Below are positions 13,151 to 63,682 of a DNA stretch of 64,000 bases, piece after piece; positions within the stretch are counted from its first letter, which is position 1, and each line of letters opens with the position of its first letter. The notes under the pieces were generated by a model. The model did no database searches, was not told the DNA's origin, and saw nothing but the letters and a program-made list of their open reading frames with translations. Origin of the DNA: Tubulanus polymorphus. Lineage: Eukaryota > Animalia > Nemertea. The DNA lies in contig NC_134028.1 in assembly GCF_964204645.1 (NCBI RefSeq), positions 15,259,653-15,323,652 on the forward strand, read 5' to 3'. The translations under genes and the position numbers were made by a program.

Positions 13151-14315
13151 CTAAGGGAGCATCTCAAAATTTCGAGTTGCTTCAATTTGAAAGACTCGCG
13201 GAAGTGAGTGGGGTGTTGAAGACGCCCGTGGATTGATCATGACTGATCATTGCTATAGGATCCAATCCCGGTCTCAAGTAGTTGGCACAGTTTTGACAGA
13301 AGCTGGAAATAATCGCAATTCAGATATAAATATTTTTATCTTATTTCATTTTGTTTATAAAGTCTATGGAACAGCCTAGATAAAACTTCCCATGTTGATG
13401 TGATTAAAAGCTGACTAATTATTTTGGTGCATCAACAATGCAAAAAAAAAACCGCGCTGAATGCGCGTCTCTCGCTGCAAAAATTGTCTTCTGCTCAGAC
13501 GCGTTTGTAGTTTTGATTGTGGTTTTGTGCATTTCATTGTGGGATGTATCTGGCCAACACAAATTGTTAATGCAAAAATAATTTATATGTAGTTGCGACT
13601 TTTAACACCCGTGTCTTGTACGTGCATTTAACCACGCCTGAAACTAAGTGCGCAACAAAGCTGCTTCTATGTGTAAAATAATCCTGAACCACGATTGACA
13701 TACGTTTTATGGGATGTTTTATCTAGGCTGTACTATATTAGAGTCTAATAGATTTTTCATGTAATTTTTCTATTTCATTTTCAATTAAAAGTTGTGATTA
13801 AAATACACTAGTGAGAACTTATCTTTATCTATGGTCTCTCATTAGAAAATCAAAAGTTCCTACTTGGGGACGTGTCTGATCAAAGGGTGGTCAGGGGGTA
13901 AGAAAGAATTAGACAGTTATACTGATTGACACAACTATTGAAATTTAGGATTTTGGGCATGGTGTCCCTAGACCCATTGTTTTAAGATCCTAACTTCATA
14001 ATACTTATGGAGCCTGTTGTTGGTGACCTTCCTTAGGTACAGTAAAACCCGCTTAATCCGGATAAGCTTAATCCAGATTTCTGTCCATTTGTAAATTGAT
14101 ATACAAGAAAATGACGTTTATTCTGAATATCCCATAAACCTCAAAATATCTCAATTTAGCGGGTTCTACTGCACATGCAATATTTCATTATCTAGGCAAA
14201 GTTAAAGTCCTAAACAAACACCTGTGTGAAGGTCTTTTTAGGGACCATCCATTTAGTACATACACAAAAATCTGCTGATGTATGAATTAATGAGGATTGT
14301 TTATTTCATTTTTAG

Positions 14316-15137
<822 letters not shown>

Positions 15138-24480: not shown

Positions 24481-24590
24481 CGGTGTTGTCATATCGCGGA
24501 ATCGCGGAATTTACAAAAAACAGAATTTCTTCATTTTCACTATATATAGTAACCGCGTTTTATAGCACCCTGAGATTTCCGCATCACAAG

Positions 24591-24680
24591 AGTAATTAGA
24601 AGATGGCGTTTTCAGATCAGAGTACGAGAGTACGAGACACCACTCATCACCACAAGTAATTTTTTTTCCTAATAAATGGG
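24591..24680 (+). repeat. Polinton left terminal inverted repeat
   Basis: agtaattagaagatggcg...cctaataaatggg is the exact reverse complement of 41665-41754. Confidence 0.97.
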
Positions 24681-25002
24681 AGATAGAAAAGCATTCTTAG
24701 CAACAATAAATAACAGAATAAAACCAGCAAAAAAACAATTTGAAATAAAAAAGTTAGTTGATGTTACAAAAGAAATTGAACATAAAATATTGAAATTAGA
24801 AAAGATAAAAACTAAATATGGAGAGAAAGTATCAGCTAATTTAAGCTACTGTAATGTTAGTACATCGCGAGAATTTAAAGTGTTTTTACCCGATAAATGG
24901 GTTTCATTGAGTACGGAGGAATTGAAAGATTTAGTAGGATTTAAAATAATATATCATGGGAAAAATGAAGACGGTCATCATGATTTAGAAATTGTTGATT
25001 AA
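24676..25002 (+). CDS. Polinton small hypothetical protein (108 aa), possibly OB-fold-like
   Basis: Intact ORF starting inside the TIR at TAAATG. Beta-rich pattern KIKTKYGEKVSANL...FKVFLP...IIYHG. Confidence 0.7.
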   Translation: MGDRKAFLATINNRIKPAKKQFEIKKLVDVTKEIEHKILKLEKIKTKYGEKVSANLSYCNVSTSREFKVFLPDKWVSLSTEELKDLVGFKIIYHGKNEDGHHDLEIVD

Positions 25003-25974: not shown

Positions 25975-26343
25975 TTAATCCATTTTTTTTATTATCAATT
26001 TTGGAATTTCAGAAGTATTTTCATTTTTGATAGCAGTTGTTTCAGAATTACTAATATCATGAATTTTATTTGATTTCTTATACCAATTACACCCAATCAA
26101 AATGAATACAATTACAAATCCAACTGTAAAATATAAATATTTATCAAATATTCTATTATCAGAAGGAGTAGAAATAACAATATTTTCACCATTTTTATTA
26201 ACATTTTTATTACTTATTTTTTCTTTTACAGCTTTTTTATATTCTTGTGATTTAATTCCTAATTGTCGAGACCATTCAATTTGTTTCTGAGTTCTCGGTT
26301 TTTTCTTCACAGTTAATTCCTTCACTTCTTTCACCTCGCTCAT
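25975..26343 (-). CDS. Polinton single-pass membrane protein (122 aa)
   Basis: TAAATG start, basic N-terminus, hydrophobic YLYFTVGFVIVFILIGCNWY. Homolog at 63308-63676. Confidence 0.8.
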   Translation of the reverse strand: MSEVKEVKELTVKKKPRTQKQIEWSRQLGIKSQEYKKAVKEKISNKNVNKNGENIVISTPSDNRIFDKYLYFTVGFVIVFILIGCNWYKKSNKIHDISNSETTAIKNENTSEIPKLIIKKMD

Positions 26344-26881
26344 TTATTATAGAAATATTTTTACTTTCAATATTTGAAAATGTTATAACCCCAGTTGATA
26401 ATAATGTCATAAATCCACCTAATTGAAATGATAAATATCCAATCCATTTATTTAATTCAGTCATAACTAAATAGTCATTTTTTAAATCGGAATATAATCT
26501 ATTTTCATTTTCAATTGGTAGTATATAATTACATAATTTACTATAACCTTTTACTACATTTTCTGATATCGCGTCATTAATTCTAGCTGTTCTCGCGGCT
26601 TCATAAATCTTAAATAATCTAATAATTTCATCTGATTTCATTGTATCTAATTCATTATAAGTTAAATTTTTACCGACAAAATTTTTACATTTTCCAGATG
26701 CTATTAATATTTCTAATTGATGTTTACAGAAAAGATAATATTCATAATTATTATTTGTTGTAACATTATTTAAAGCACCATCATCTGGAGTTAATTTTGT
26801 TTCTGTTATTCCTAAATCATCTAAAGTTTTTTCAATTGAAACATCACCATTTTTAGATTTTATTTTCTTTTCACCTCCCAT
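26276..26881 (-). CDS. Polinton conserved hypothetical protein (201 aa)
   Basis: TAAATG start. Clear homolog at 62710-63315 sharing IEKTLDDLGI, YEYYL.CKH and LYSDLKNDYLVMTEL. Confidence 0.85.
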   Translation of the reverse strand: MGGEKKIKSKNGDVSIEKTLDDLGITETKLTPDDGALNNVTTNNNYEYYLFCKHQLEILIASGKCKNFVGKNLTYNELDTMKSDEIIRLFKIYEAARTARINDAISENVVKGYSKLCNYILPIENENRLYSDLKNDYLVMTELNKWIGYLSFQLGGFMTLLSTGVITFSNIESKNISIINERGERSEGINCEEKTENSETN

Positions 26882-27150: not shown

Positions 27151-27741
27151 TTAAATGGGTGTTGTAATAAATAGTAATTTTGATCTTTTAATATTTTTCA
27201 ACTCATCCATATATTCATTATGTAAATCATGTGGAATAATATCATTTTCCTCAAGTGCATTTTTCATCGATTTTCTATCTTTATTGTAGAATAAAACTAG
27301 AAATCTAATGTTTTCTCTAAAGTCTTTAACAATTGAATTATATTTTTGATTTAAAACCCAAGTTGTTATCCCAAAATGTCTCCCAGAGAAAGCTAAATAG
27401 CATAATTCACTTTCTCTAACTTTTGAATCATGTAAATTTGCACAATCATCTATGATAAATAATGTATTTGATCCTTTATAAATATCAATTGCTATTTTTA
27501 TACAATTATCTAAATTTTCTTTTACTGTTTTAGGATCTAATATAATAAATTTATTATTTCTAGTAATATTTCTATCATAAGTTTGATTAAATTCATATGT
27601 TGGACAAAATAATACTATATTATCAAAATAGTTTTTGTAAATAGTTTCTAATAAATTTAATATAAAATAAGTTTTTCCACAATTTGTTACACCAGAAATT
27701 AACATATTATGAGGCTCAAATATGAATAATTCCTTATTCAT
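27151..27741 (-). CDS. A32/FtsK-like genome packaging ATPase
   Basis: Walker A ISGVTNCGKT, Walker B LFIIDDC, and A32-type GRHFGITTWVLNQKY...REN. Confidence 0.92.
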   Translation of the reverse strand: MNKELFIFEPHNMLISGVTNCGKTYFILNLLETIYKNYFDNIVLFCPTYEFNQTYDRNITRNNKFIILDPKTVKENLDNCIKIAIDIYKGSNTLFIIDDCANLHDSKVRESELCYLAFSGRHFGITTWVLNQKYNSIVKDFRENIRFLVLFYNKDRKSMKNALEENDIIPHDLHNEYMDELKNIKRSKLLFITTPI

Positions 27742-28869
27742 TTATATATTTTTAATTTTACTTGATAATATCCATTCATTAAATTTATCTGGCCATCCAA
27801 CCCATTTTACTAAAGAATATTTTTTTCTTTTAATAGTTTTTGTTTTTAATACTTTTTCAATTTTATATTCTTGTTCTAGATTTTCAGTAGTTAAACTTAA
27901 TTCTTCTTCGTAAAAGTAACCATCAACTTCTTCACCATCTAAATCTTCTAATTTATAGACATATGGTTTTGTTGTTATTACCTTTTTTATTTTATATATT
28001 TCCCTAGTAAAATTTCGATCGTATCCTTTGTCAAATATCTTTTTATACTTAGATATTCTAACATTTTGACCAACTTTAAATTTAGGTTCACCAAAATCAT
28101 CTACAAGAAATGCTCCATATAAATTATTCCAAACAATTTCAGCATTTTCAGGTTTTCTAGCATCAATAGGTTTCATTCCAATAGAAGAATGATAAGAATT
28201 ATTATATCCTTCTATCAATTTTGGTAAAACATCAATCCATTTAAAAGTATTATTTGCTGTAAAATATTTCCACATTCTTGTTCTTAATGTTCTATTAAAT
28301 CGTTCAACAACTGCTGCTTTTTTATCTGATTTTGTTGAAAAATATTTAATATTATGATTATCTAAGAGTTCATGAACAAGTGAATTATCAAATTCTTTTC
28401 CATCATCAAATTGTATTTTTTCTGGTTTTAGTTTATCATCCGAAAGAAATTTTCTTAAAACATTTGATGTTTGTACAGCATCTTTTCTATAAAGTGGGAA
28501 GCTCCATACATAACGACTAAAAATATCAATTATATTCAATAACCACCAATAATCATCATTATCTTTCTTAACATTTTTCATATCAATTAAATCTCCTTGC
28601 CACTGTTGATCTACATAACTTACCATAGTTTTACGAGTTTTATATTTTCTAACAATTTTTTTATGTGTTGTATATGTTGGTTGTTCTAACATAAATTCAT
28701 TTATATCTTTATATTTAACTAAATTTTGTGGGATTATCTTATCTAATTTATCTTGTTTTACTTTACGCCATATATTTTTAGTAGAAGAATAAGCAACCGA
28801 ACTCTCAGGGTTGTAATATAAATTTCTTAAATATTGTTCTTTAGTATTAGGAGTTTTTTTACCACTCAT
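27742..28869 (-). CDS. Retroviral-like (RVE) integrase with C-terminal chromodomain
   Basis: DDE triad in WQGDLIDM / QFDDGKEF / VVERFNRTL. C-terminal YKIEKVL...LVKWVGWPDKFNEWI chromodomain. Confidence 0.95.
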   Translation of the reverse strand: MSGKKTPNTKEQYLRNLYYNPESSVAYSSTKNIWRKVKQDKLDKIIPQNLVKYKDINEFMLEQPTYTTHKKIVRKYKTRKTMVSYVDQQWQGDLIDMKNVKKDNDDYWWLLNIIDIFSRYVWSFPLYRKDAVQTSNVLRKFLSDDKLKPEKIQFDDGKEFDNSLVHELLDNHNIKYFSTKSDKKAAVVERFNRTLRTRMWKYFTANNTFKWIDVLPKLIEGYNNSYHSSIGMKPIDARKPENAEIVWNNLYGAFLVDDFGEPKFKVGQNVRISKYKKIFDKGYDRNFTREIYKIKKVITTKPYVYKLEDLDGEEVDGYFYEEELSLTTENLEQEYKIEKVLKTKTIKRKKYSLVKWVGWPDKFNEWILSSKIKNI

Positions 28870-28899: not shown

Positions 28900-30147
28900 C
28901 TAATATTGAATACTATCTAATTGTGAATTTACAATATTTAATTGTGCGTCAGATATAATATAAATGTGCATTTTAAAATTTTTGATTCCTTTATTCTTTT
29001 TCATGAATAATTGTATTCCATCTTTAGTGTTCTGTAGTTTTTTTCCAGAACCATGTAATGAATTATCTTCTGTTGTTCTAAAATCTAACCATAATGCATA
29101 TTTATTACCGGTATAATAATCAATTTGATTAATATTACAATTTTCAAATGATTTTACTTTTTCATTCATAAAATGTTTTCTAATTTCTGGCCATTGATCA
29201 ATCATTCTCATTCCTTGACAAAATATTTTATTCGCTATTCCTTCAATTGTTATTTCTACTTTTGTTATTTCAGGATTATAATAATTATCAACATTTATTG
29301 CACCATTAGAATATGTTGCAATAGTAAAAAATATTAATATACCTTTAATAGATCTTCTTGGGAAAATAATATTCTCATTAATTATTTCATCATTTGCATT
29401 GATAGTTACAGTTTTAAATTTATCAATATAATCATATAATAATGAAAATCCTTGATTGTATTGAGTTTGAATTGTGCTAGCAATATTTTCATTAGTTACT
29501 GTGTTATATTCTAAACATATATTCGATAATTTATAACCCATATCTTTAACAACGCTAGATAATACAATTTAATTTACAGGAGCAAATGTTATCTCAAATA
29601 TAATATCTTCTTGAATTGCGTATTTATATAAAGGTGCATTATTATTTATCAATTCAAAGTCTAATGGAATTTTATATTTGCTTCCATAAATCTTTTTAAT
29701 CAAATTATCTACACCATTATTTACTACTGCGTTATTGGCTTCAGATCTTAATTTATTTTGGTTTTCTGATTGAATTCCTTGAAATATCATATTATTTCTA
29801 TTTTCTTTAGTTAACCATAAATCTTTATAATGTGAAAATAAATTATAATCATCTAATGAGAAAACTGTTTCTGGACCAATCTTTATTGTTAACTTTTTAA
29901 TCAAATATCTTCCAACATTATCAACAACATAATTATTATTATTACCGATTACTTTTATATCGGCTGATAAATAAATACTGTTTGGAACATAAAAAGTATT
30001 TTGTGTTAATTGAGGGATTCTAACGTATAAAGTTTCATCGGGATTAATATTTGAAGGGTTATGAGTAATTATATGATGTGATCTTTCTGCTTTAATAGCA
30101 TTAGATATTCTATGATTCTTCGAAGGACTTATATAACTCCCACTCAT
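28900..30147 (-). pseudogene. Major capsid protein (double jelly-roll) with one in-frame stop
   Basis: The 192-aa and 213-aa ORFs are in the same frame, separated by TAA (29569-29571) and 9 sense codons. About 415 aa, beta-rich, with the size and position expected for a Polinton MCP. Confidence 0.75.
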
Positions 30148-33880: not shown

Positions 33881-34096
33881 TTATATGGGAGGAATATATT
33901 TTTGTTTTTCTAAATAATCAATAGTTAAATTAGATAAAGTAACTGCTAATGTTAATTTTAGAATATCATTGATATCAAATCTATCAACATTTCCCATTTT
34001 GAATACTTTTTTTAATACCATTGAATAACCAACAGTTCCAACTGATAGTAATGCTCCATTATATAATCCAGTTATTATCCACTTATTATCACTCAT
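33881..34096 (-). CDS. Small hydrophobic protein (71 aa)
   Basis: TAAATG start. A related copy at 58354-58500 conserves the frame. Confidence 0.78.
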   Translation of the reverse strand: MSDNKWIITGLYNGALLSVGTVGYSMVLKKVFKMGNVDRFDINDILKLTLAVTLSNLTIDYLEKQKYIPPI

Positions 34097-34472: not shown

Positions 34473-35225
34473 TTACTCTTTACATCTTATAACTAATTCA
34501 TAAATTACAGGAAAGTTATTCAAATCAATTAAGTATCCATTATGATTTCTTATTTCTAATTTAAAATTATTAAATTGAGGAATACAAGGTTTGAAATCAC
34601 ATTCAGCTAAATTATAATTTATTTGCGTTCCAAATTCTTTAACATTCTTCAATGGTAAAATGTTTAGTAAACCAGAATTACAAGTTATATCTTTAGTTGC
34701 TTCGAATGTTTTTGTAGGATCAATTAAATTGCAATAAATATAAAAATGTGTAAAAGGCATTAAGTTTGATTTACCTTCTGCGTATGCTGTAACAATATCT
34801 GGGTTAATTCCTAACAGTTTACCTAAAGGTTTTCTTACTGTAAATTTAAATTGTTCGTCTAACCTAATCTTTATTTTATTAGAACTAGCACTTTTTAAAA
34901 TTCTAATATTAAATCCAGAATCACTTCCTAATTTAGCTCGAGCTTTTCTATTAATTTCTTGTGCTAATGTATTTAAATTATATAATCCTGGTTTTAAATA
35001 TATAAAAAACCATTTATTCCTTTTTTTATAAAAGATTGAAAAAATTAAATGTTCAAGACTTTTATCCGTTACATTGTAAAAAGAATTACATAAACTTATA
35101 TTTACTAATTTTAAATCAACGCAATTCTTAAATTCTCTATCTAATTGTACTAATAAATTATGAGATTTATAATTTGTAAGTTTTCTAGAATCAACAAATA
35201 TTCTGTATTCTTTTAATTCTACCAT
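34473..35225 (-). CDS. Minor capsid protein (penton, single jelly-roll)
   Basis: Pattern IFVDSR...NSFYNV...PGLYNL..L...IN...LLGI...YIYCNLI...KLEIRNHNGYLIDLN..PVIYELVI, typical of Polinton/NCLDV pentons. Confidence 0.8.
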   Translation of the reverse strand: MVELKEYRIFVDSRKLTNYKSHNLLVQLDREFKNCVDLKLVNISLCNSFYNVTDKSLEHLIFSIFYKKRNKWFFIYLKPGLYNLNTLAQEINRKARAKLGSDSGFNIRILKSASSNKIKIRLDEQFKFTVRKPLGKLLGINPDIVTAYAEGKSNLMPFTHFYIYCNLIDPTKTFEATKDITCNSGLLNILPLKNVKEFGTQINYNLAECDFKPCIPQFNNFKLEIRNHNGYLIDLNNFPVIYELVIRCKE

Positions 35226-35293
35226 TATTTATAACATAAAAAAATTACCGCTCATCACTAAAAATTAATTTTAATAAAATTTTTCCTTAATAA

Positions 35294-36610
35294 ATGGATG
35301 AGACGATAGCATGCGAAATTTGTGGTGAACTTCTAAGAAAAAGTAATATGGCTCGACATATGAAAAAACATGATGAAAATTATAAACCCCCTAAAATAAA
35401 CTGTCCAAATTGTAATAAAACATTCTCTAGAAATTATTTCAAAAAACATTCAGAGAAGTGTAAAAATAATAACTTAATAGTTAATGTTGACAGTAACGAA
35501 AGTAATAATAATTCTGTTGAAGTTGAACCTGAAATTATTTGGAAAAGACCTTTCTTATTCTATGATAAGGATAATATAAAAGATCATTTCTGTGAGCCTT
35601 GTCGAATAAAATATAACCCTGAAAATATAGAAGATTGGGAGAATCATCAATTTCGTAAAGTACATATAGATAAAATTTCTAATAAATTTGAAACTGAATT
35701 CAATGCAAGAAAAAATAATTTATTAGAAAAAATAAAATATGAGAAAACGTTACCAGATAATGAAGAAACAGTTGAAAAGTTAGAAAAACAATATAATGAA
35801 TTAACAAGAAAAACATATTATTGTAAATATTGTAAATTGATTATTACAACAAGTAATTCAAATCTACATAATAGAACAATAAAACATAAAGAAAACGTAA
35901 GAAAATACCAAGAGCTTAATGAAGATCTATTACCAGTAAATTATAAACAAAAATGCCCACAATGTATTTATGCGACCTTAAGGCAAGAAGGTACTGTGTT
36001 ATTTTGTGTTGATTGTGGATGGCAAAGGAATTTATGGGGTGAAGAAAAAACTAGAAATTTTCTTATAGAACCAAAATTAAATTATCTTGATGAAATTTTT
36101 AAAATATTTTCTATAGAAGATCATACACCAGAATATATGCAATGGCTTGAAAAAATGAAAATAATAGAAAATAAAAATGGTGAAATAACTAAAAAAGATA
36201 TTATAAAAACAATTATTCCACCAACATTTAACACAAAACAAAAGAAAATGTATTTATATTTATTATTTAACGATTATTATGAAAAACCTAAATTAACAGA
36301 AGAAGATATGGAAAATATAAAAAAAATATTTAAACAAATATTAATATATCATTTGGAAAATAGAATAACAGATTCAATAAATTATGAATTCTTTTTAAAT
36401 AAGATTGTAAATTATTTAAACCTAGATATTATAATTCCATTTGATGAATTAACAAACAAAAAGAAACAAAGAGTGCGAGATGAAATGTGGAACAAGATAG
36501 AAATTTATTTAAATGAGAAAAATGGAATGGAAGAAGAACCTGAACAATTAAATGAAAATGAAGAAGCTAATAGTGATTTCGAGTATGATGATATTGATTT
36601 TATGTTTTAA
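35294..36610 (+). CDS. Zinc-finger protein with C-terminal VLTF3-like (poxvirus A2 / NCLDV late transcription factor 3) domain
   Basis: Four N-terminal C2H2/C2HC fingers and a CPQC..CVDC ribbon, then PKLTEEDMENIKKIFKQI...SINYEFFLNKIVNYLNLD...LTNKKKQRVRDEMWNKI, matching the VLTF3 C-terminal pattern as I recall it. Confidence 0.72.
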   Translation: MDETIACEICGELLRKSNMARHMKKHDENYKPPKINCPNCNKTFSRNYFKKHSEKCKNNNLIVNVDSNESNNNSVEVEPEIIWKRPFLFYDKDNIKDHFCEPCRIKYNPENIEDWENHQFRKVHIDKISNKFETEFNARKNNLLEKIKYEKTLPDNEETVEKLEKQYNELTRKTYYCKYCKLIITTSNSNLHNRTIKHKENVRKYQELNEDLLPVNYKQKCPQCIYATLRQEGTVLFCVDCGWQRNLWGEEKTRNFLIEPKLNYLDEIFKIFSIEDHTPEYMQWLEKMKIIENKNGEITKKDIIKTIIPPTFNTKQKKMYLYLLFNDYYEKPKLTEEDMENIKKIFKQILIYHLENRITDSINYEFFLNKIVNYLNLDIIIPFDELTNKKKQRVRDEMWNKIEIYLNEKNGMEEEPEQLNENEEANSDFEYDDIDFMF

Positions 36611-39600
36611 TGGCTATAAGGTAATGTTTTTATACCATCATCTGAAATATGCCTTTTATCATCAAATGGATTTAAACTAGTTTTTTCAACTTCATTAATG
36701 TACATCTCATGATCTTCTGATCTTAAACAATTCATTTTGTGTTTCATTACAATTGATTTATATAAACACTTTATATAATCTTGAAATTCTATATGTTTAT
36801 CAACCACATGTTTTGTTATTCCTTTTAACTTTTTAGCTTCATGATCTTTTGTTCTGTAACTATACATTTTACTTCTTATCCCAACAAATTCAATCATTTC
36901 ATCACCCCCTAATTCATCTTTAAATTTACCAGGAATCTTTTTATTATCATTGCTAAACAATTCATGATCTTTGGGGTAATTGCTAAAATCAAAATAATGT
37001 TTTAATGTTTTTAAGTCTTTTGTTATATTATTTGTCTTGATTTTTAGTATGTAGGCGTCAGTATTGACCGCTATTAATGGAAATCCACAGTTAAATGTAC
37101 CATCTTCAGTTGATAAATCATAAACATAATCTGTTGGGTTATATATTTCAAATAAATCCTTAACTTCTTCTGTTAACTCATTTTCTACATGGCTTAAATT
37201 AAAGCAATTTGGTTTAGATTTAATCAATCCAATATTCATATTAAATCCTAATGAAGTGCATAATATATTCAATCCTGATATAGCAACTTTTCCTTTTTGA
37301 GCTAAAGATATTGTTTTGCGGTTTTGGAAACTTTTTGAACCATCTGCTGCATAGAATCCAATGAAGAACCATTTTCTTAAATTATTTTTTGCATTTAATA
37401 CATAATCTGGAACTATCTTTTCTTTTGTTGAAGTATTACTTTTCACTATTGCATGAATATAGAATTCGTTATTATATTTTATAGCAAAATCTTTAGGATT
37501 ATTCACATGTATTCTATAACATTGTGATGATTTCATAACATCTATGATTTTGAATGTTTTATGTGAATAAACTTCTTCACAGAATTTCTTAATTCTTTCT
37601 AATAATTTTTAAGTCTTGATTGCATAAATACCAACAATATTTAGTTCCACTAACATAATTATACACACCTGCTGAACCATCACCCATGAAAAATCCTTTG
37701 ATAAAATATTCTTTTTCTTCCAATGTTTCGGGTTCTATATTATAAATATTATCAATTATTTCATCAAATGATATATGATTCATTCTTAGGAAAAATCTTT
37801 TATGTAATAATTCATCTCCAATTTTTATATCAGTTGGTTTTATTTCATTACCATTTTGTTTAATCAAACTATGGTCTTCAGTAATATCAACAAATCCTAA
37901 TTTAGTTCTAACTCTATAGATTTTCTTATTCGTTTTATGTCTAATTATATTCTTTAATTTTGTCCATCCATTTCTTGTCCAAACATCCATTAAACCATTT
38001 ATTTGTATTAATTCTTTTTCTCCATATGAAATATAACATTCATTTTGTTTTGGAATTATTTCTGAAATTCTTCTTATCAATATTTTATCATTACATTTTA
38101 ATAATATTGGGGTGTCTGCTGTAACAGAATCAAAGTATAGAATTTCTATATTCTTTTCCCCAAAATGAGGTTGTAATACATTATAATAGAATTCATACAT
38201 TAGTAATTTTGATAATTCTAAAACAGTCGAACCAATAAATATAGGTTTATTGAATTTAATAGACGTTCTTTTTAATTTTACCGCGGTTAAATAATCCTCA
38301 AATCTTTTATTTCCTAAATGTCTAGGACTTGATTGTAGGTGTCTCAATCGTTCAGAATTATTTACTAATTCAATATCATTTCTATTTCTAATATTTTCAC
38401 ATGTTTTACCATAAAAACTATTATTCATTAATTTGAAGAAATCTTTTTCAAAATCTGTTTTTGATATGGTTCTCTGTTGAGTATTGAAATCTATATATTT
38501 TTCTAACCACTTTGATTGATTAAATTCAATATATCTATGTACTTTCTTTAATTTCATTCCTTGTTTTAGATAAAATTTTAACATTCTATAATGAACAATA
38601 TAATTGTATTTATTATTTTGAGTAAGTATTAATTTTTCTGTAAAAACATGATCTTTCGGTTTTATTTTCTTCTGGTATTCACTTAAATAACTATCATCTA
38701 CAGTTAAATGTTCTGGGCAATAAGGTAAGTTTCTTGTTTTAAACTTTATATTTTCAGGATATTCTAAATCAACTACAAAGAAATAACCAATTGGTGCTTC
38801 ATCTTTTAAACTAATAATTGCGCTTTCCCAATCAGTTTTATCACCATTTTCAACTTCTGTTAATATAAAATTTTTATATGGTTGAGGTTGCATCATTGCC
38901 CAACCATATAAATTATTGGCGTCAATATATAATAATTTATATTCATCATTTGCTTTAAAATACCTATCTCCCATAACACCACTAATTCCACCTCTAATTG
39001 ATTTTTCAAATAATAAAACCATATCTGGTTCTTTTAATAAATCTAATTCTACATTTGTATATTTTAAACCACATTGCCAGGTTAAACCAGGACTAGAATA
39101 ACAATAACAAGGATCAACATTAAAATGATTCAAATTAACTTCTCTAAATTTTTCAAATATGTCAGCCAATATCATAACATCTGATTTTAAATATAAATCA
39201 ACTAATTCACCATGATTTTTCATCTTAAAATGGTTCCAAATATTTAATGTTCTATTAAACACTTCATCTTTCACATACTCCTCTTTTAATTGATCATAAA
39301 ATTGATCTTTTAATAATTCTGTTACATTAAAATCATCATGTGTTTTATAAAATGAATAAGGAATTGCGCCTTTATATCTCAATAATTTAAAATCTTGTTC
39401 ATTTGGATAATAATATCGAGTTATAACAAAATCATTATCAACTAAACTTTTTGATAAATTATCTAATGAACTTGCTAGAAATCTATAAGAATCTAAAAAT
39501 CTAATGCAACCAAATTGAAATGAAATATAATTTTCAGATGTTTTAGCTAATAGTTTAAAATCATATTTTCTTACATTTATACCATTCATAGCATTATATT

Positions 39601-41669
39601 CTTCTATTTCTTGATTAATTGCGCCCAATTTTCCCGATAATTGTTTTATAAATAGATGGGTATCATAGCCTGATAAATTATGAAATAATATTGGTACGAA
39701 ATTAACTTTCTTAGCTTGTAAATTGCAATCTTCATGAGCAGCTCCACGATATTTTGAATTCAAATGATCATGATCTCTAACTCTTTTATCAAATGAATAA
39801 AAACGTTTTTCACAATAACAACAATGAGTTGCATAATTAAAATCAATTTCATCTTCTTTTGTCATAACTATTCTTTTATTTTTGTTTAATAATTTTGTAA
39901 AATCACTTTCTAATTCAATCACAACAAAAATCATTAACTACATTTTCACCTCTAAAAGAAATATATTGACTTTCATATAATTCGGGATAATTTGATTTGA
40001 TGTAAATTCCATAAGCAGCAGCTCTTTGATGAACTTTTTTAATTGTATTTATAATTGGTGGGTCTTGTATTGCGTCTTCATTTAATTCATTTCCTTTATC
40101 CATTGATTTTAATAATTGCTTTTTGTTATATATTTCTTTTCTATCTTGATCAGTTAATTCTTTATTCAACGATTCAAAATCCCCATAAATTACAAATGGA
40201 ACAATATTTTTAAATTTATGATTAGTAAATTTCAATTTATAATCTTTTTCTGTTGGCATTATTAATTTACAAAAATCTTTATTATCACATAATTCTTTAT
40301 GTTTTAATAATGTATTCTCAGTTCTAAATTTAGATAAACATTTTCTACATAGATAAATTTTATGGCTGTTAAAATCACTTTCTGTTCTAAAGAATAAATC
40401 AATTTGATTTAACCACATATAATGTTCATTTTCATCTTTTTTGTAATATAACAAATCTATAGCATTTTCATCATCATAATATTCTGTTAAATATAAAGCT
40501 TCCAATGTATAATCTTTAATATTTTCACCTTTTGTCTTTGGTAATTGCATTAATTCGAATACATTTATTTTTAAATTATTAATTTTTTCGATTTTAGGAA
40601 TCATTTTTATAGTTACTGGATATTGATCAATTTTATATAATGTTTCATATTTCCGATAATCTGTTATTCTACAAACATTTTCCTGTGTTGGATGTAAGCA
40701 ACTAATAATTGACCATAGAAAACATTTGTTGTCTTCATTTTGAACATTTATTACTGCTTTTGTTGTAAACGGTAATTTGATATAACTTGATGCTTTCATA
40801 TCTTTTTCTGTTATAAAGTTTGAATCATTTTTAAACATTTTATTACTTTTTGATGTTTTATTTCTTTTTGTATTATAAACATTTAAATCTAAATATATAA
40901 TTTCATTCAATGTTAAGCCAGAACCCTCAAAATATCTTTCTTCAATATGACGTTTAAATTCATTTAATATTTTTTCTAACTTCTCTTTTATTTGTGTTTT
41001 TGAAATTATTTCTTCAGAGTGTGTTTGAATATTATAATTCATTTTTTCTTCTGACTTTATAAAACTTACTTTCCCAGAGATACTAATTTTTGGATATTCA
41101 ACATCTGTTATCAAATCTAGTAATTTTTCTATTATTTCATTAAATTTACTATAATCTTCTATTGTTGTACCTTTAAAGAATCTAAATATAATAGCTGCAG
41201 GACCAATTTTACTATGTAATGTTTCTAAGATTTCAATTGTATCTTTTATTTCTAGTGAATCAATATAATTTCTAACATTTTCCATGTAAGGTTTATTTGA
41301 AATGGATTTAGTTTTTGAAGTTGGTTTTTTTACTTTTTGAGTTTTATCGTCAAAATAATCTTTTCTTAAAACATTATTACTCAAATTTTGGTGGTGTTTT
41401 TGTGATTCGAGATGTCTATTATAATTCCTTTTTACTATAAATTCATTACAAACTTCACATTTTATTTCATCCACATTCATATTTTCTAATCGTTCTTTTC
41501 TTTCATTGGAATTTTCTGGAGTTTCAAAATCTATAACATTTTTTATATGATTTGAAGATTTTTCATGTTTAGATTTATTAGATTTATCGATGTATTTTTT
41601 ACAATATTGACAATAATATTGATTTTTATTGACATTATTGTTTTCTAGTTGGTGTTCATTCTCCCCCAT
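36607..41669 (-). pseudogene. Protein-primed family B DNA polymerase with intein and two frameshifts
   Basis: Exo I YGDFES, Exo II FHNLSGYD, Exo III YLKSDV, Pol A YIDANNLYG, Pol B KLMNNSFYGK, Pol C YFD/TDA, GKFKDE and RSKMY. EndoVII-like CCYC..DHDH..CN insert. Frameshifts at ~39925 and ~37607. Confidence 0.95.
37063..38128 (-). mobile_element. Intein with LAGLIDADG homing endonuclease (~355 aa) in PolB motif C
   Basis: Block A SVTADTPI, block B VDITEDHSL, LAGLIDADG motifs FIKGFFMGDG and FFIGFYAADG, block F YVYDLST, terminal Asn followed by +1 Thr. Removal restores YFDTDA. Confidence 0.92.
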
Positions 41670-41754
41670 TTATTAGGAAAAAAAATTACTTGTGGTGATG
41701 AGTGGTGTCTCGTACTCTCGTACTCTGATCTGAAAACGCCATCTTCTAATTACT
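41665..41754 (-). repeat. Polinton right terminal inverted repeat
   Basis: Exact reverse complement of 24591-24680. Confidence 0.97.
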
Positions 41755-42920
41755 CACAAGCACAGGCTAACTACGTTAAAAATCCTTAAGTCGACGATCA
41801 GGAACCAACGACGAGAAAACGTTCCTAAAACTTCAAACCGTAAATTTCACTTTATTTTCTTCGATATATCGGAGAGACGAGGCTGGACATCCAACCCGCT
41901 CAAAAGCTACAACTCGAATCTTTGATTTCTTTCAACAAATTTTCAACCAGGATACTATTACATAAGACACCAAGGGTGGCAGAGACCAGAAGGCAGTTAT
42001 CGAAACAATACACACTGACTGACACTTCAAGTACATTTCTAAAACAAACAAACAGTCTGACACTCCAAAACTGACTGACACCCTGCCCCCTTAGTAACAT
42101 CAATGAAAATAAGACGATATTTGTAAAATAAGAAATAGAAATCATAAACAAGACATAAAAATGCTCTGTTAATTTAGACTAAATTTAGTTAAATATCTAC
42201 GCTGTGATAGTTTTCCCGTGGGGATACCCACTGCCGGACATGGCACCGGACCGATCGATGCACTGAGTTATGTTCGAATCCCATTATTTGCAGGCTATTT
42301 CATCGGAAATTATGCGATTCCGTTGACTGGCTGCAACCTACAGCAGCAGCCAGAATCAAGTAGGAAGAAGAGATCACCTGGGCGAAGTTCGGTTATCGAA
42401 GTTAGTCGACTTTTTGCGAACTTCAGAACGAATATTATCAGTTGAATTTGAGCACCGTTCGACCTGGCCGTAGTTCGTGGTTCCAAACTTGGGGTCCTAG
42501 GACCAAACAAGTACCGATTTAGTAACAATATGATTTTTATTTGATTCAAATAATCAGCAACAAATATGTAATAGCTGTCATTAAGAAAACCAGCGGCATC
42601 TAAAAAAACGAAACCATTTTATAATCTCTAATATCATTTCATTTCGTAAACTTTCCCAGGTAAACTACTGATTTACCACCGATTTTATTTGATTCGTTCA
42701 GTATAGTACACTGCGATACTGTGCATCACAGATTAAGTTGTTGACTGGCGATATAATGAATTATCACATACTGGTACCCGTTTATGAAAACATCTGTCCG
42801 ATGCCTTGTCCGACAGTAGGTATCCCCACAGGAAAACCCGGTTACGATTTATAGTGAAAATGAAGAAATTCCGTGTTTTTGAAAAATTCCGCGACTCCGT
42901 TCCTCGATATGACAACACTG

Positions 42921-55977: not shown

Positions 55978-58350
55978 GTTACAGAATTTGTAATATGCCA
56001 GGTGATGGAAATTGTTTTTTTTTTCATTGCCTAAGTATGGCACTTTTTGCTAATATTGAGTTCACGTAAAACTTAAGGCATTTCATATGTCATCATATAT
56101 TAGATAATTTTCCTATCTACAAGTTTGATGTCGTGACAGACCATAACTTTCCTTCTGACTCTAAGGAATCATACACTTCTGGTATGATAAATGCTAATGG
56201 TTGGGCAACAAGCAGTGAGGTCAAAGCAGCTGCACATATTTTAATGTGTGATATAACTACATGGGTATATGGCACTAATGGGAAGCACTTTCCTGTTAAG
56301 TATTTTTCTGGGGAAAATAACAGTCCCCAAATACATCTACTATTGAAGCCATTATTCGCTATTAAAATCAAAAAAGGTGAACACATCTTTTCGACTGAGG
56401 GACAGCAGCTGCCTGATACATATACAAAGTCCACCATCAGAGCACCAAAAAGAAAAACATGTAACCACCAATCCCCTGCTTTTCACAAAAAGTCAAAGGT
56501 GGTTACCATCAAAAAATCAAACAATAGAAAATCTGCGGCTGATAGAAAATCTGCTCCAGCTACAAAACCCTACATATTCAGAGAAGTTGGTGTTTTCAAT
56601 TAAAACCGCGCACAAAATAATATAAAAGCACAACAAAATATTCCTCCAGCCCCTGAAATGCCCATGTCTCAGAACGAAAAAAACAATTTCAATCAGGCAT
56701 TACAAAAAATACATGCCTTTGAATCAAAGGAAATATCATATGAATTCGTAATGTAATATATGCCTGGAACGTCACCTTGAAATGAAACTGGCAAAAATAT
56801 AGGTCCATGTGTCACCGGTGCTTTGTGGACAAAGAGCGAGTAAAATTGTTCTCCCATGATAATCGAATGGACCCATTAGAGGTTCCAAGTGAACTGAGCA
56901 ACTTAACTTTAGTTGAGCAGCAATTGATCTGCAGAATTGCTCCAACTATCAATGTTCACTTGCTCAAACATGGAGGCATCGGTTCAAGTGGACATTGTGT
57001 AACATTTCCACAGGATATTGATGAACCTGCTCAAATCCTCCCAAAACTTCCCCATGAAATAAATATATTGAGAGTAAGAAGAAAAGGCAGCAACGATACC
57101 ACAAAAAAAATTAACGTTCAACGATAAAAAGTAGAAGCAGCACTTAACTGGTTAAAAAAGAATAATCCGGCATATGCTGACATCAAAATCTCTGCAGAGC
57201 GCCTCAATCAGTTACCTAAAAATGGGGAAGTCAATATCCAAACTGTCGAGTACAATGGGGTACCCGCGAAACCAGCTATCCCACCAGATGGCGCAACAAG
57301 CAGTAGGTCGTTCGTTGTCAAAATAAGTTCATTTTCAATGACATTTGAACTGGATTTTTGAACTCCTCAATCCATATACTATCACAGCACCTACCAATAT
57401 ACAATACTTTCATTCTTCTAATCGGATATCGGTAAAGTTTCCAAAAATGATTCATTCATTTAAGAGAAAAGTTAATTTAGGTTTAATTGAAATGTAGACG
57501 AAATCGAACGTGGACGACCAACTATCTACTAGCGACACCTGGCGGATCCTCGCCTGCCATACGTGGAATCCTCGATTGCCACAGTAGCACTGCGGGTACC
57601 CCATTCCGATGTACAACACATCAAAGATCAAGGTCCAGCTCCTGAGCAAATTAATCCAGGTGAAATTACTGATGGCGAAACAACATCCTCTGTAAATCTG
57701 CCGAACTCAGGAGTCGACATCCGCACAGAAGTAGAAAACATAGTTCGGAACATTGTTGGCGATGATCATGGCCCAGTCACCGAAAGCCAACGTGGTGTTA
57801 TAACCATTCCATGGCCCACGCGTGACAGTTCTCCAATTCCAGAATTTACAACAAAATATTTTTTCACACTAGCTTTTCCTGTTTTATTTCCGTATGGCCT
57901 AGCTGATTTTAACATCAATCGTCCAAGAACTATTTCATCACTTTCAGCATGGGCAGATCATCTACTGTGGTATCAAGACGGTTTGTTTAAATTCATAGTG
58001 CACAACATTATATCCCGCAAAAAGCTGGTTACTACAGTTCAAATCTGAGGGGTACATCACAATATTGGGCCCAAAAGCCAAGGAACTGAGAGCCTTGTCA
58101 CAGTACCAAATAAACACTGGAAAAGGTTTGCCATGCTTTTTTACTACAGGCAGCTGTGCAGAATATCATTTTAAGCCACTTCGTCGCTTACTTAAAATGT
58201 ATATTGAACAAACAACTGGACAGGACCTTGACTTTGAAAATCGCAATAATTTATTTAAAGCACTACAAGAGAACTGTCACACTGTTGGACATTATTTTGA
58301 TTTACGGACCCAAAATTAGTTCAAGCAGGTAATGGGACCCATCTTTGGAG
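55978..58350 (+). pseudogene. Decayed Helitron RepHel gene with N-terminal OTU domain
   Basis: OTU-like MPGDGNCFF and GWATSSEVKAAAHIL; ELSNLTLVEQQLI...GHCVTFPQ...KVEAALNWLKKNNPAY; Helitron N-region TLAFPVLFPYG and GLPCFFTTGSCAE. Multiple stops and frameshifts. Confidence 0.8.
57257..57602. mobile_element. MITE inserted in the Helitron ORF
   Basis: TIRs GGGGTACCCGC / GCGGGTACCCC. The Helitron reading frame resumes on either side. Confidence 0.65.
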
Positions 58351-58353
58351 TCG

Positions 58354-58535
58354 ATGGTATTAAAAAAAGTATTTAGAATGGGAAGTATTAATGTTGATAG
58401 ATTTGATATAAATGATATCTTAAAATTAACATTAGCAGTTACTTTTTCTAATTTAACTATTAATTATTTAGAAAAACAAAAATATATTCCTCCTATATAA
58501 ATGCGTAATTTTTTTACTAAATAAATGGCATCTGC
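58354..58535 (+). pseudogene. Isolated Polinton fragment (3' part of the 71-aa gene and start of the 140-aa gene)
   Basis: Encodes MVLKKVFRMGSINVDRFDINDILKLTLAVTFSNLTINYLEKQKYIPPI*, then TAAATG-MAS. Closely matches the reverse complement of ~33845-34021. Confidence 0.9.
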
Positions 58536-59474
58536 GAAACGAATATTTGTTTTTGCGCCCGCGCAAAAACAAAGGCTTAATGAATTTTTTTAATCGATCC
58601 TGATCGCATTACGTACAGGAGTGCCGTGCCCCATGTTCATAGAGGTAGCACGCTCTTGTTGCATGGTCGCTCGAAGAAGATGGCTAATCATCCTCAAGAA
58701 ACAGATGTAAATATAAACTTTTGATTTAATTCCTTGATCGTTATATGGCTATTAATCATTAGTGTAGGCCTACTTTTACAGATCATTAAACAATGGATCG
58801 TTAGACGGGTTTAATCACTTCCCAGTGGATAAAGGTCATCTACCCGGGTCTACAAGCCGATTCACTCATTAATGTTTGTGTAGTATTGGTGATATAATAA
58901 TATTTTCGAATTCGGCCAAACTTATTTTCTGCAACGAGATTTGGGGTGATTGGGGGTCGTCATGCCTCCAATGCGCGCCCGTACTAAAATCAATAAACTT
59001 TTGTTGAATTCAGACGCTGTAAACTATTTTAGCGTGTTTAGGCCTACGTATAATAATACATGTAAGCTTGATAACCCATACGCCATCTGTCTAGTAAGGG
59101 AAAACCTTTCCTGGTCTTTGCCTGAACTCTGGAAAGGGTCGGGTCTATTACATTTAAGATAAACACATTTAGCAGTGAAAGGGTTCGAGTTAAGGGGCAG
59201 GTAACTCAACTTTTTTTCTTCATTTTGATCGAGGCTAATACTTTTCATATGAAAACCCACATCTTAAAATATTTATTTATGAGGTCGTCCCGCTCTCGTA
59301 GTCAGGAGTCAGGAAGCTCACGAGACATTGCCTCAGGCCAGTAACATGGTTAAGCGGCAACCAGTCTTATACAATTCTGACTGAACTGGCCTGAGGCACG
59401 TAAAGTTACTTGCAGCCTCATGCCATTGTAATTATTAGGTGTATTAGATGTTTTTCTTCTTACTTTTTAAATAG

Positions 59475-60399
59475 TCCATCGACCAAGTTCTTCTAGATTT
59501 GGATTTGGGAGACTTCATACAAGTTTTCAAAGATAACAAGGTAGGCTACATATATATATGTTAAATCTTTGATTGCTTTAATTCAAAGCAAATTTTGAGT
59601 AGTCGGACATGCCTTGATTGTAAACAGGTTACAAGATATATATTTCTAATTTGACTTTTCGTACATTTCTAGATAGGTTTACAAAATGTGGTACCATTAA
59701 CCGATGCAGATTTTGAAGCTTTAGGAATTGTAGCTGTAGGCGATCGGAATCGACTGAGACAAAGATGCCGGATTGCATCTAGCACCGGTACAAACTTTTT
59801 TTAAATCCAAAATTTTGAATGGTTTTCAAATGTTTGTGAGGCAGTGCCACTACCCTTTTCCTAGTGAACATGTGGGCCACGTCTGTATCAAATCTTCCCA
59901 TCTGACATGTTATATGTTCATTTTAGGTAATGCATCAGCAGTCATTAGTCGTTTGCGGGGAAAGATTCCTGCATCCAAAAGACCAAGTTTAGAAAAACTG
60001 AAAAAAAACGTAAATGGTTTAAAAAGCACAACGCGAATTAAATTTGGATGGAAGCATAGAAAATCTGGAAAATCAGATTTTGCTCTTATAGGTATCGCGA
60101 ATGGTGGTGGCAACCATTCTTTAGACATTGAAAAATTTGCAGATTATGATTCTTTATGTCAGAAAGCTGTGGAACTTTTCTTCCAGATGGAATTTCAAAA
60201 GCTATGAATTTGAAACTCAGCAATTTGGATGTCTTTATAGCAAATTTTACTGGCAAAATGCTCGAAAGAAAGTTTCCTGATGGCCGAACATTTTGTCTAA
60301 ACGAGTACGTTAAGGATGCGTCGTATCCTGTTAGACTATATATCCATACATCAGGGAGTTCTGAAGAATTTCCAGTAGCACAATTCCTTCAGAATCCAC
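59475..60399 (+). pseudogene. Spliced SAM-domain gene fragment, frameshifted and truncated
   Basis: GT-AG exons 59475-59540, 59673-59787 and 59927- join in frame: SIDQVLLDLDLGDFIQVFKDNK/IGLQNVVPLTDADFEALGIVAVGDRNRLRQRC (SAM pattern). Frameshift at ~60180. Confidence 0.65.
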
Positions 60400-60674
60400 A
60401 AGAGTAATAGGGGTAATGGGCTTTCAGGCCAAAGGTCGAACGGTCGAGCTCGTAAAAATGAAAAACATGAAAATAATTACAATTTCTACTTGAATTACTC
60501 GCGAAACTCATAAAAATGAAAAATAAATTCTCACACGCTCGAATTTATTTTTTTTCATTTTTATGAGTTTCACTCCTAATTCAAGTAGAAATTGTAATTA
60601 TTTTCATGTTTTTCATTTTTACTCACCCGCCCGTTCAACCTTTAACCTGAAAGCCCATTACCCCTATTACTCTT
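60400..60674. mobile_element. Palindromic MITE
   Basis: AAGAGTAATAGGGGTAATGGGCTTTCAGG...CCTGAAAGCCCATTACCCCTATTACTCTT, with ~130-bp arms around a 10-nt centre. Confidence 0.85.
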
Positions 60675-60904
60675 AAAATAATCATGTACATGAATAACAT
60701 TTAAATTGACAGATTATTCAATTTAAAAGTGTAAGCTCTTATAGAATAGATATATAGATATATTTTAAACATTATTTCAATATTCATATTTGTATGAGTT
60801 AGATGTTTAAACATTAAAAGTGTTAGTAAAGTGTGATTGAAATAATGCATGATATAAATCATTGAACTTCTAAAATCAATTTAGTAGAAAAATATGTATA
60901 ATAA

Positions 60905-61562
60905 ATGGAATCAGAACAACCACAAACTATAAATATTACAAATAACACTGGTGGTGTTATAAATATATATTACAAGAAGTGTTCTAAATGTGAATTAGAT
61001 AAATTAGCTTTAACAGAATTTAGTAATCGTAAGATTAGCAAAGATGGTTTTCAATATTGCTGTAAAAACTTGTTTTAAACTATATACCAAACAATACAGA
61101 GAAGATAATAGAGAAGCTTATAATGATTATATGACGGAATATATGAGAGAAAGATATCAAACAGATCTTAATTTTAGATTGAAACAATGCTTAAGATCTA
61201 GATTAACAAAATTATTCAACAAAGAAACGCATTCAGAAACACTATCTAATTTGTTGGGTTGTACAGATGAATTCTTAAAATCATGGATAATATATCAATT
61301 CGATGATAAAATGAATATAGATAATTATGGTGAATACTTTCATATTGATCACGTGTTGCCGATTTCTAAATTTGACGTGAGTGATGAATACAATAAAAAA
61401 CTTATTTGGAGTTGGAAAAATTTAAGGCCTTTAGAAAAGAAGGAAAACATAATTAAATCTAATAAACTAGATATACAGTTATATTTAGATCAACTGGATA
61501 AAGCAAAGACATTTGTTGAATTATGGAACTCAACATGTAATGAAAAATACGTTGAAGCTTAA
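60905..61562 (+). pseudogene. HNH-type endonuclease with N-terminal Zn ribbon, one frameshift
   Basis: Start at TAAATG 60905: KKCSKC...DGFQYCCK. An extra A at ~61066 precedes TCF...LLGCTDEFLKSWIIYQF...FHIDHVLPISKFD...WKNLRPLEKKENIIKSNK. Confidence 0.75.
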
Positions 61563-62709
61563 ACGCTTAGAAAACCGGTTACTCTCGATCTATGTCAAAC
61601 CGCCTATATTTAATTGTATTAGGTTGTTTACAAAAGCATCTGTCGCACGTTATATTCAGTTGAATAGGGTGTATCTCATTTGAATATTGATCAAATGTTC
61701 TATTTCAGTTGAAATAGATTAATCAATAACATTACAAAGGAACATCTGTTGCACAGACGGTGTTTAGCTAGTGAATAACTGGCAGTTATAAACACGCAGC
61801 ACATAAGCATAGGAACGTATAGGATATTCTCTCTATAAACACAATTTTTGGAGTTTACAGTTATAAATGTAAGTACTGTTTTTGTTGTTATTAAGGCGTT
61901 GGGAAACGTTAAACATGTAAAACTTATTTTGGTAAAATGCATCACAAATGGCTATGTTTAAGTGCTGTAATTAATATTTTACAACTACAACTTCAAGTTA
62001 GTTTTATTCTACGTTAGATATTTATCTTTTAGATAACAAAATGAAGGCCATTGAATCAAGAAAGTGAAGATAGATGGATGTGGAATCAGAAATTATGGAT
62101 ATTTCAACTCATGAGACTGTAGCAGTTTAGCCTGTATAGGCTTCCAATGCATTACGTTTGCCGGAATTTCAATTGCGTCATTAAGCTGTTGTTAATGCCA
62201 CACAGTGACAGATGTTGTATTGTACTTTATTGATTCCTGCATTCCACGCATACCTTACCGCTCGGCTGCCGAGCGGCTTGGAATGTGGAAATCGATAATG
62301 ATTGTAGAATAAAATATACGTGTGTTTATGAAATAGTATTTCCACCAGTCGTTTCTTTGAATTTATTTTCAGTTTTTAGGATTTATTTATCGAGAATCCG
62401 AAATGACTTATCTGGACAGTTATAATTACTGCTCCTATAGATAAACAATAGTAGTGAGATAATCTAAATCCTAATTTAAATAAAATATAATAAAAAAACA
62501 ATAACTTCAACTAGCTAGTGAATTCTATTATATTTTTAATACTTTCTTTTCAAAAGAGAATACTTTATATTTTGAATAGATCCGAATAGAAATTCTTTAG
62601 CTTTAACTAGCTAGTATCAGTAGTCAATACTAGAATTCTTTAACTTTAACTATCTAGTATCATTTTATAATACTTATAATATTTTTCTTATTAAATTTCT
62701 CTAATATAA

Positions 62710-63315
62710 ATGTCAAAGATATCTAATAAGAATAGTATTGATATTGAAAAAACATTAGATGATTTGGGCATAAGTGATAATAAAGATACAGTTGTTTCTA
62801 ATTCTATTCAAGTTAATAACAATATTGATTATGAATACTATTTATATTGTAAGCATCATCTTCAATTATTAATTGCTGGCGGGAAATCTAAGGATTTCTT
62901 GGGAAAAATTTTAACTTATCAAGAACTAGATGCTATGAAACCCGATAAAGTAATAAAATATTTTAAGATTTATGAAGAGGCAAGATTAGCCCGAATAAAT
63001 GATTCTATTTCAGATGGTATTGTCAAATGTTATTCTAAGTTATGTAACCAGTTAATACCAATTGATGATGAAAATAAATTATATAGTGATTTGAAAAATG
63101 ACTACTTAGTTATGACTGAATTACAAAAATGGGTTGGTTATGCTTCATTTCAATTAGGATCGGTTATGACATTAATTTCTACTGGTGTCATAACATTTTC
63201 GAACATAGAGCCGCCTATGGAATATAAATCAGGCAAGAACGAAACAGATGTACTACAACCAAACGTCGAAACAGAAAATAAATCAGAACAAAAATTAACT
63301 AAAATAAATCAGTGA
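62710..63315 (+). CDS. Polinton conserved hypothetical protein, homolog of 26276-26881
   Basis: Intact 201-aa ORF with TAAATG start and extensive identity to the first element's gene. Confidence 0.85.
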   Translation: MSKISNKNSIDIEKTLDDLGISDNKDTVVSNSIQVNNNIDYEYYLYCKHHLQLLIAGGKSKDFLGKILTYQELDAMKPDKVIKYFKIYEEARLARINDSISDGIVKCYSKLCNQLIPIDDENKLYSDLKNDYLVMTELQKWVGYASFQLGSVMTLISTGVITFSNIEPPMEYKSGKNETDVLQPNVETENKSEQKLTKINQ

Positions 63316-63676
63316 TGGAGTTAAGAAAAAGGCTAGATCCGAGAAACAAATTAAATGGGCAAGAGAATTAGGTAAAAGATCTTCAGAATTAAAAAAAGCT
63401 AAGAAAAAGAAATTAACTGATATAAATGAATCACAGACTTTATCTGATATTGATTCAAATAATAATCCATCTGATTCTTCTAATGCTGGAAGTAATTTTA
63501 AATTATATATTACAATTGGATTAGTAACAGTTACTATATTATCCGGTGTAATATATTAATCAAAATTCAAATCTAATGATAAATATGATTCCAATGACAA
63601 TAAACCTATTATACCAGAAAATAAATCAAATGATAAAGTCATTGAAAATAAACCAAGATTATTATTAATGGATTAA
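63308..63676 (+). pseudogene. Homolog of the 122-aa membrane protein, start lost and internal stop
   Basis: TAAATC replaces TAAATG. KKKARSEKQIKWARELG aligns with KKKPRTQKQIEWSRQLG. TM segment, TAA at 63557, ends LMD*. Confidence 0.75.
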
Positions 63677-63682
63677 AATAAG

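Follow-up and report, generated by a model that had tools for sequence, protein, structure and literature searches.

The window (the whole stretch of 64,000 nucleotides of Tubulanus polymorphus DNA that was analysed, to which all positions refer) contains a Polinton of 17,164 bp, bounded by terminal repeats and flanked by a target duplication of 6 bp. The left terminal inverted repeat (24591-24683, forward strand) starts with AGT and is preceded by the duplication CACAAG at 24585-24590; the right one (41662-41754, reverse strand) is 99% complementary to it and is followed by CACAAG at 41755-41760. Between the repeats, the reverse strand encodes a retroviral-type integrase with a chromodomain (27742-28869; PF00665, E 2.5e-10 and PF00385, E 8e-4), an A32-type packaging ATPase (27151-27741; PF04665, E 1.6e-13), a probable major capsid protein (28900-30147; PF16903, E 0.002, below the cut-off) whose gene has an in-frame stop at 29569-29571, and the protein-primed DNA polymerase (pPolB) described below. 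No Pfam match to an adenain-type cysteine protease was obtained among the 17 ORFs at E 0.01. The ORF 34473-35228 displays a weak DUF5901 match and may code for a minor capsid protein. Fragments of another Polinton-like element, related to this one, are found at 58350-64000, where the G+C content goes down to 27-30%; they match the capsid gene and the ORFs 26276-26881 and 33881-34096 of the first element. Between 56070 and 58048, short ORFs match DUF6570 clearly and OTU weakly; they are perhaps the remains of another mobile element.

The G+C content is 24% in the element and about 36% in its flanks. One flank carries a forkhead gene (10420-15137), which we take to be FoxJ1-like, split by a GT-AG intron of 3.4 kb (10915-14315) that falls inside the domain. 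The look-alikes of the forkhead exon in the Atlas belong mostly to arthropod and chordate clusters. The target duplication, the terminal repeats and the forkhead flank indicate a defective Polinton that was recently inserted into a chromosome that is very likely animal. The preliminary description, made from the letters of the window, had spoken of an animal genome; the gene, its intron and its mostly animal look-alikes support this.

The pPolB gene is read in several pieces, all on the reverse strand. Its N-terminal part (39915-41669) lies in a different frame and displays 33% identity over 582 aa to the N-terminus of the intact P0001 (labels of this kind designate protein relatives, and L001 and following designate viral or metagenome loci). 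The N-extein (38129-39937) comprises the exonuclease and the motifs A and B (PF03175, E 1.9e-19; 55% to P0001), and its frame (...QPHFGEKNIEILYFD, also given as ending in ...IEILYFD) reaches 38129. There it is interrupted by an insert of 1066 nt (37063-38128), whose first residues are SVTADTP at 38128 and whose last ones are NCGFPLIAVN at 37063. The C-extein (36607-37062; 57% to the C-extein of P0001) resumes from the +1 Thr with TDAYILKIK at 37062. The insert is thus situated in the polymerase motif C (YFD|TDA), between Y-x-D and T-D.

The first Ser, the last Asn and the +1 Thr of a class 1 intein are present. The N-terminal splicing (Hint) region (37865-38128) contains the block A (SVTADTP) and the block B (TEDH) and is matched by TIGR01445 over residues 2-88. 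The N half of the insert matches this intein_Nterm model with 31.6 bits (E 2.5e-7), for a curated cut-off of 24.5, and in the PDB it matches PI-PkoII (2cw7, E 2.3e-5). The C-terminal splicing region (37063-37131) contains the block F (VYDL, with its Asp) and the terminal Asn. Two LAGLIDADG motifs, each with an acidic residue, are found in between: FIKGFFMGDG (37676-37705), conserved in the intact relatives, and FFIGFYAADG (37339-37368; LAGLIDADG_3, E 0.006). The Pfam families Intein_splicing and LAGLIDADG_3 match the two halves, both below their cut-offs. The coordinates and motifs of the preliminary description (Ser start, Val-Asn end, +1 Thr and two LAGLIDADG motifs at YFD|TDA) are therefore reproduced and, with a Hint-domain match above the curated threshold, the insert is confirmed as an intein, predicted to excise itself from the polymerase.

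As the 1066 nt are not divisible by three and two reading frames overlap at 37589-37608, the intein is broken in this copy. It is out of frame with the host protein here and in frame in the relatives P0001, P0003, P0239, P0248 and P0249. A further break of the polymerase gene lies upstream of the intein, at 39915-39937, and with two frameshifts an intact precursor cannot be made from this copy as written. The acidic residues of both LAGLIDADG motifs are retained in the six aligned Polinton inteins (6/6). The intein and the element have the same G+C content (25% versus 24%), which gives no sign of a recent import. Among 268 inteins of the motif-C site, near-copies included, the penultimate residue is Lys in 156, His in 91 and Val in one (this copy); a residue other than His being ordinary at this site, the idea of a special mechanism linked to the missing penultimate His was dropped.

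Relatives of the intein were searched among proteins of 1370-3910 aa with its N half as query. This search gave 81 matches, of which 79 are RNA-primed PolBs; the first and third ranks are occupied by intact pPolBs with an intein at the same site (P0001, 65% and P0003, 52%), and the archaeal inteins come last (rows 80-81). The whole intein of P0001 used as query matches 1302 proteins, the best 120 of which comprise 114 RNA-primed PolBs, five pPolBs (P0001, P0003, P0239, P0248 and P0249) and one topoisomerase-type protein. A search of short proteins gave seven matches, four of them with a pPolB-type N-extein; in P0229-P0233 and P0140 the inteins are broken or the fragments are short. A search of 1.84 billion representatives recovered 1942 matches; with hardly any exception, the best 150 of them are RNA-primed PolBs or fragments. 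From IMG/VR, 37 loci were obtained, many labelled GVMAG, with at most 45-47% identity over long matches; 35 of them were inspected and, where the start of the intein is visible, the site is YGD|S (VGD|S in three). The IMG/VR scans with P0001 and P0013 as queries found no loci. Over 117 viral and metagenome loci, an RNA-primed N-extein match was found in 103 and a pPolB in none. The protein P0244 (1897 aa), which has topoisomerase II-type domains, carries inteins related to the motif-C PolB inteins.

The viral PolB inteins known so far reside in RNA-primed enzymes. The preliminary description had equated the insertion site with that of archaeal and giant-virus PolB inteins, and indeed, outside Polintons, the relatives at this site all belong to RNA-primed PolBs. 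It had also noted a close resemblance of the N-terminal part to giant-virus PolB inteins, but the nearest ones lie elsewhere: the identity to this copy is of 63%, 52%, 49% and 43% for the inteins of Polinton-type pPolBs and of about 40% for the best one of an RNA-primed PolB. The closest relatives are thus predicted inteins, intact and at the same site, of other Polinton-type pPolBs, rather than those of giant viruses, and such putative inteins are present in at least four other Polinton-type families. Among the lineages with Polinton inteins, the link to an animal covers the lineage of this window only.

A structural model of the P0001 intein (residues 1184-1537, 42-row alignment, pLDDT 91.9) was compared with known structures. 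Its best PDB matches are full-length LAGLIDADG inteins (7qsu, E 5.7e-18, TM 0.67), and it also matches the inteins TliVMA, PI-PkoII, PI-PfuI and PI-SceI, as well as I-DmoI. In the BFVD, it matches the PolB inteins of a phycodnavirus, Pandoravirus, Marseillevirus and Megavirus. Through this model, with its two dodecapeptide motifs and their acidic residues, a DOD endonuclease fold of the I-DmoI/PI-PfuI type is supported.

The stretch is present in four Logan runs of one organism. Sister copies were studied in the raw reads of a WGS run from a different study, filed under the same species label; about 12% of that run was used. At 80% likeness, 3728 reads were recruited to the positions 36850-38350; only 64 of them (run X5) are at least 99% alike to this exact copy, so that the recruited reads come mostly from other copies. 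Over the break of the intein, 174 of 215 reads from sister copies differ from the sequence of this copy. The preliminary description had called for alleles devoid of intein, and these were found: in 22 reads, with 17 start points, 37062 is followed directly by 38129, so that exactly the 1066 nt of the intein are skipped, and 36 further reads join 37053 to 38129 via nine letters that read T-D-S. Filled and empty states therefore coexist in this species. The read depth at 80% likeness is of 145-270 within the intein versus 550-740 in the adjacent extein bins. At 85% likeness, it is of 169-243 in the intein, 233-287 in a neighbouring family-specific gene and 340-510 in the exteins. The depth of the intein being near that of the family-specific gene, the close subfamily may consist mostly of filled copies, and the empty-site reads may in many cases derive from more distant subfamilies. 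Loose read ends near 36862 and 38224 were considered as borders of a conversion tract and dropped, as they translate as ordinary diverged polymerase.

An intact copy would produce a precursor of 1500-1700 aa, inactive until the intein is removed. Splicing would follow the standard route, with an acyl shift at Ser1, attack by the +1 Thr and cyclisation of the last Asn; it would rejoin Y-x-D to T-D and restore the catalytic motif, so that the polymerase would depend on it. The freed LAGLIDADG nuclease would then cut the empty site coding for Y-x-D-T-D-S in a sister Polinton, integrated or replicating, and repair from the filled copy would bring the intein and some flanking sequence into the cut one. 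Because Polintons are many-copy elements, empty targets would be available in the same nucleus without mating.

The marks that such homing would leave were found in a second lineage, the P0239 family. The cluster contains 136 proteins, of which 40 were read and 15 are listed, from ENA contigs whose length ranges from 57 kb to 1 Mb. Among the 15, 13 span the site, seven with an intein (346-348 aa) and six without it. The filled and empty alleles present 10 fixed differences over 1191 extein columns, and all of them are situated from -7 to +43; the probability of this clustering (p 4e-12) is overstated, since the columns were treated as independent. In the tract, the identity between filled and empty alleles is of 74.8%, against 98.5% upstream and 96.3% downstream. 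After removal of the tract, the two kinds of allele are mixed in the tree, on few sites. The divergent tract of about 50 residues fits homing with co-conversion from a related donor, as homing would leave it. The empty alleles themselves vary at the site (residues -8 to +4), with 73.9% identity versus 97.7% elsewhere, and this variability is possibly an escape from the nuclease. The empty alleles P0338, P0340-P0342, P0344 and P0345 include C-D-S and T-D-A in place of T-D-S.

The same data can be read as a single entry of the intein into each Polinton family, by recombination or by one homing event with another Polinton as donor, followed by passive transposition with a nuclease that no longer drives the spread. 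All seven filled P0239 alleles carry one common flanking tract, so that a single event and many events are indistinguishable from it, and one conversion followed by transposition could equally yield it. The broken intein of this copy and the broken or short fragments P0229-P0233 and P0140 also agree with passive carriage. On the other side, the acidic LAGLIDADG residues are intact in all the aligned Polinton inteins, the filled and empty P0239 alleles intermix once the tract is removed, and the empty alleles are variable precisely at the site, as escape from cutting would make them. We hold passive carriage to be unlikely and favour a spread by homing, which would account for the divergent tract and for the variable empty sites.

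Movement of the intein between polymerases can be examined with the two classes of Polinton polymerases. Starrett et al. 2021 (PMC8502044), writing on Polinton/Maverick elements, divide the adintovirus PolBs into an Alpha and a Beta class; from the Pfam scores and the sequence, P0003 would be a member of the Alpha class and the polymerase of this window one of the divergent Beta class. The inteins of this copy and of P0003 are 49% identical, whereas their exteins are 24% and 26% identical. In pairs of the same class, the inteins display 63, 52 and 43% identity, for 59/57, 48/42 and 48/50% in the exteins. The five Polinton inteins form one clade with a support of 99 in a tree of 109 non-redundant full-length rows, of 100/100 in a careful tree built from 63 of these rows and 9 outgroup rows, and of 99 under a mixture model. 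P0003 is included in this clade (100/92), and a topology in which the inteins of the same-class polymerases form a clade without P0003 is not rejected (AU p 0.34). One predicted intein lineage appears to span both Polinton polymerase classes, which indicates lateral movement. The preliminary description had considered, against its own view, that the closest relatives might be widespread and vertically inherited in Polintons. They do reside in Polintons; their distribution is patchy and their inheritance not vertical, since filled and empty alleles stand side by side and one clade occurs in two classes. The comparison of intein and extein which it proposed points to lateral movement.

In the best tree, the Polinton inteins are nested among the inteins of RNA-primed viral PolBs. 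The nearest rows are those of the RNA-primed PolBs P0013, P0110 and P0174 (95/96; 81 under the mixture model). The polymerases P0013 and P0110 match the enzyme of African swine fever virus far better than the cellular Pol delta (E 1e-114 and 5e-98), a class assignment based on similarity to PDB entries, which were identified through listings of PMC11417396 and PMC12721172. Both carry a full-length motif-C intein. This asfarvirus-like trio is a lead, and only that, to a possible source of the Polinton inteins. A descent from the GVMAG group L001-L003, proposed on the C-terminal 'GFPL' (37 of 268 inteins), was dropped because the trees do not join them. Apart from the motif-C site, inteins occupy the motif B of the viral PolBs P0002, P0083, P0085, P0086, P0238, P0245 and P0246; they form one clade (100/100) nested among the motif-C inteins, which suggests a jump between two sites of one gene.

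The Polinton inteins may also have another origin than giant viruses, as sister lineages that go back to an older pool, in archaea, in phages or in an unsampled virus, or as donors in a flow from Polintons to giant viruses. A Polinton clade outside all the viral rows is not rejected (AU p 0.48, the root being made of two short archaeal inteins), the stem beneath the clade is long (0.39-0.54), and the putative phage-like PolBs L023 and L033, so labelled from their sequence, have the same intein site. Against this, RNA-primed viral PolBs are rich in diverse site-C inteins (114 of the best 120 of 1302 matches) and pPolB inteins are rare (5 of the same 120); in addition, the Polinton inteins are about 40% identical to the viral ones, and the archaeal ones rank last of the 81 matches. 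We judge a non-giant-virus origin improbable and retain as likely the direction from giant virus to Polinton, which is deduced from the abundance and diversity of inteins in viral PolBs and not from the root. The long stem argues for an old entry and not for a transfer into this element. The preliminary description had derived the intein from a transfer out of an NCLDV polymerase: the viral origin is likely, and the one-off jump into this element is set aside by the existence of a lineage resident in Polintons. At the first capture, viral and Polinton genomes would have been in one cell, presumably through co-infection, with a target made common by the conserved motif. The DNA flanking the insertion was compared between this copy and eight viral loci: 4-8 of 12 letters are alike on each side, and this likeness gives no support beyond the shared codons for Y-x-D-T-D. 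With such a low identity at the site, the first capture from a virus is the weakest step of the proposal.

Contamination or an assembly error, which would place the element outside an animal chromosome, is very improbable: the small number of reads closely alike to this copy (64 of 3728) is in its favour, and it is opposed by the perfect 6-bp duplication and the 99% terminal repeats joined to flanks of 36% G+C with an intron-split forkhead gene, and by the abundance of intein reads in the WGS run of another study with the same species label. The explanation that we consider probable is a broken copy of a full-length motif-C intein of Polinton pPolBs, predicted to be self-splicing, likely to be homing, and probably acquired in a single transfer out of an RNA-primed polymerase, that of a large DNA virus. 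A bolder reading, in which a homing gene drive is now active among animal Polintons, with an intein that came from an asfarvirus-like large DNA virus, converts empty copies, has crossed polymerase classes and selects escape variants, seems doubtful to us. If it were true, the intein would be a footprint of animal Polintons replicating in cells co-infected by large DNA viruses.

Animal genomes are regarded in reviews as devoid of inteins; this locus presents a complete endonuclease intein in a protein-primed polymerase on a chromosome that is very likely animal. In the openly accessible articles covered, no account was found of an intein that lies in a protein-primed polymerase or in the nuclear genome of an animal. 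What appears to be new is a site-III PolB intein resident in Polinton pPolBs, with filled and empty alleles inside families and members in both polymerase classes; its host gene is viral and not a cellular animal gene. Such an intein could serve as a marker for two questions: do Polintons of animals share cells with large DNA viruses, and does break-induced conversion pass DNA from one Polinton copy to another? In a host element with many copies, a homing endonuclease would have a way to persist that needs no mating between carriers of the filled and of the empty allele. As alleles of both kinds occur naturally at 98% identity, splicing and cleavage are open to direct test.

The element resembles Polinton/Maverick elements, as outlined by Starrett et al., by its pPolB, integrase, A32 ATPase, capsid gene, terminal repeats and 6-bp duplication. 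It differs from the usual ones by the motif-C intein, by short terminal repeats of 93 bp and by the lack of an adenain match among its 17 ORFs in Pfam. Nuclease domains of the HNH and VSR types inserted in Polinton pPolB2 were reported by Jeong et al. 2023 (10.1101/2023.08.22.554363), in whose accessible text the words 'intein' and 'LAGLIDADG' have no occurrence, and the part of Krupovic et al. 2024 (PMC11071308) available to us suggests that such polymerase inserts result from intein invasions. The insert described here is likewise a nuclease domain within a Polinton polymerase. The pPolB2 inserts, as far as these texts describe them, are HNH, VSR and GIY-YIG domains without a splicing (Hint) domain or LAGLIDADG motifs, whereas here a complete intein splits the catalytic motif and exact empty alleles exist. 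Nuclear inteins are described in fungi (Green et al. 2018, PMC5784728) and in Anaeramoeba (Gallot-Lavallee et al. 2023, PMC10710043); according to the consulted parts of these papers, they are also nucleus-encoded, with viruses proposed as vectors, but their host genes are cellular, while the host gene here is that of a many-copy virus-like transposon. The Mimivirus R322 PolB intein occupies the site III (YGD|TDS), of the kind found in Nucleocytoviricota and archaea (Ogata et al. 2005, PMC549080); the comparison with it rests on the description in the accessible part of that paper and on metagenomic giant-virus loci. The Polinton intein shares with R322 and the other site-III inteins the class of site, a size of about 350 aa, the first Ser, the last Asn, the +1 Thr, the Thr and His of block B and the LAGLIDADG domain. 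In contrast to them, its host is a protein-primed PolB (PF03175) in an integrated 17-kb element and not an RNA-primed one (PF00136), and the Polinton inteins form a clade of their own.
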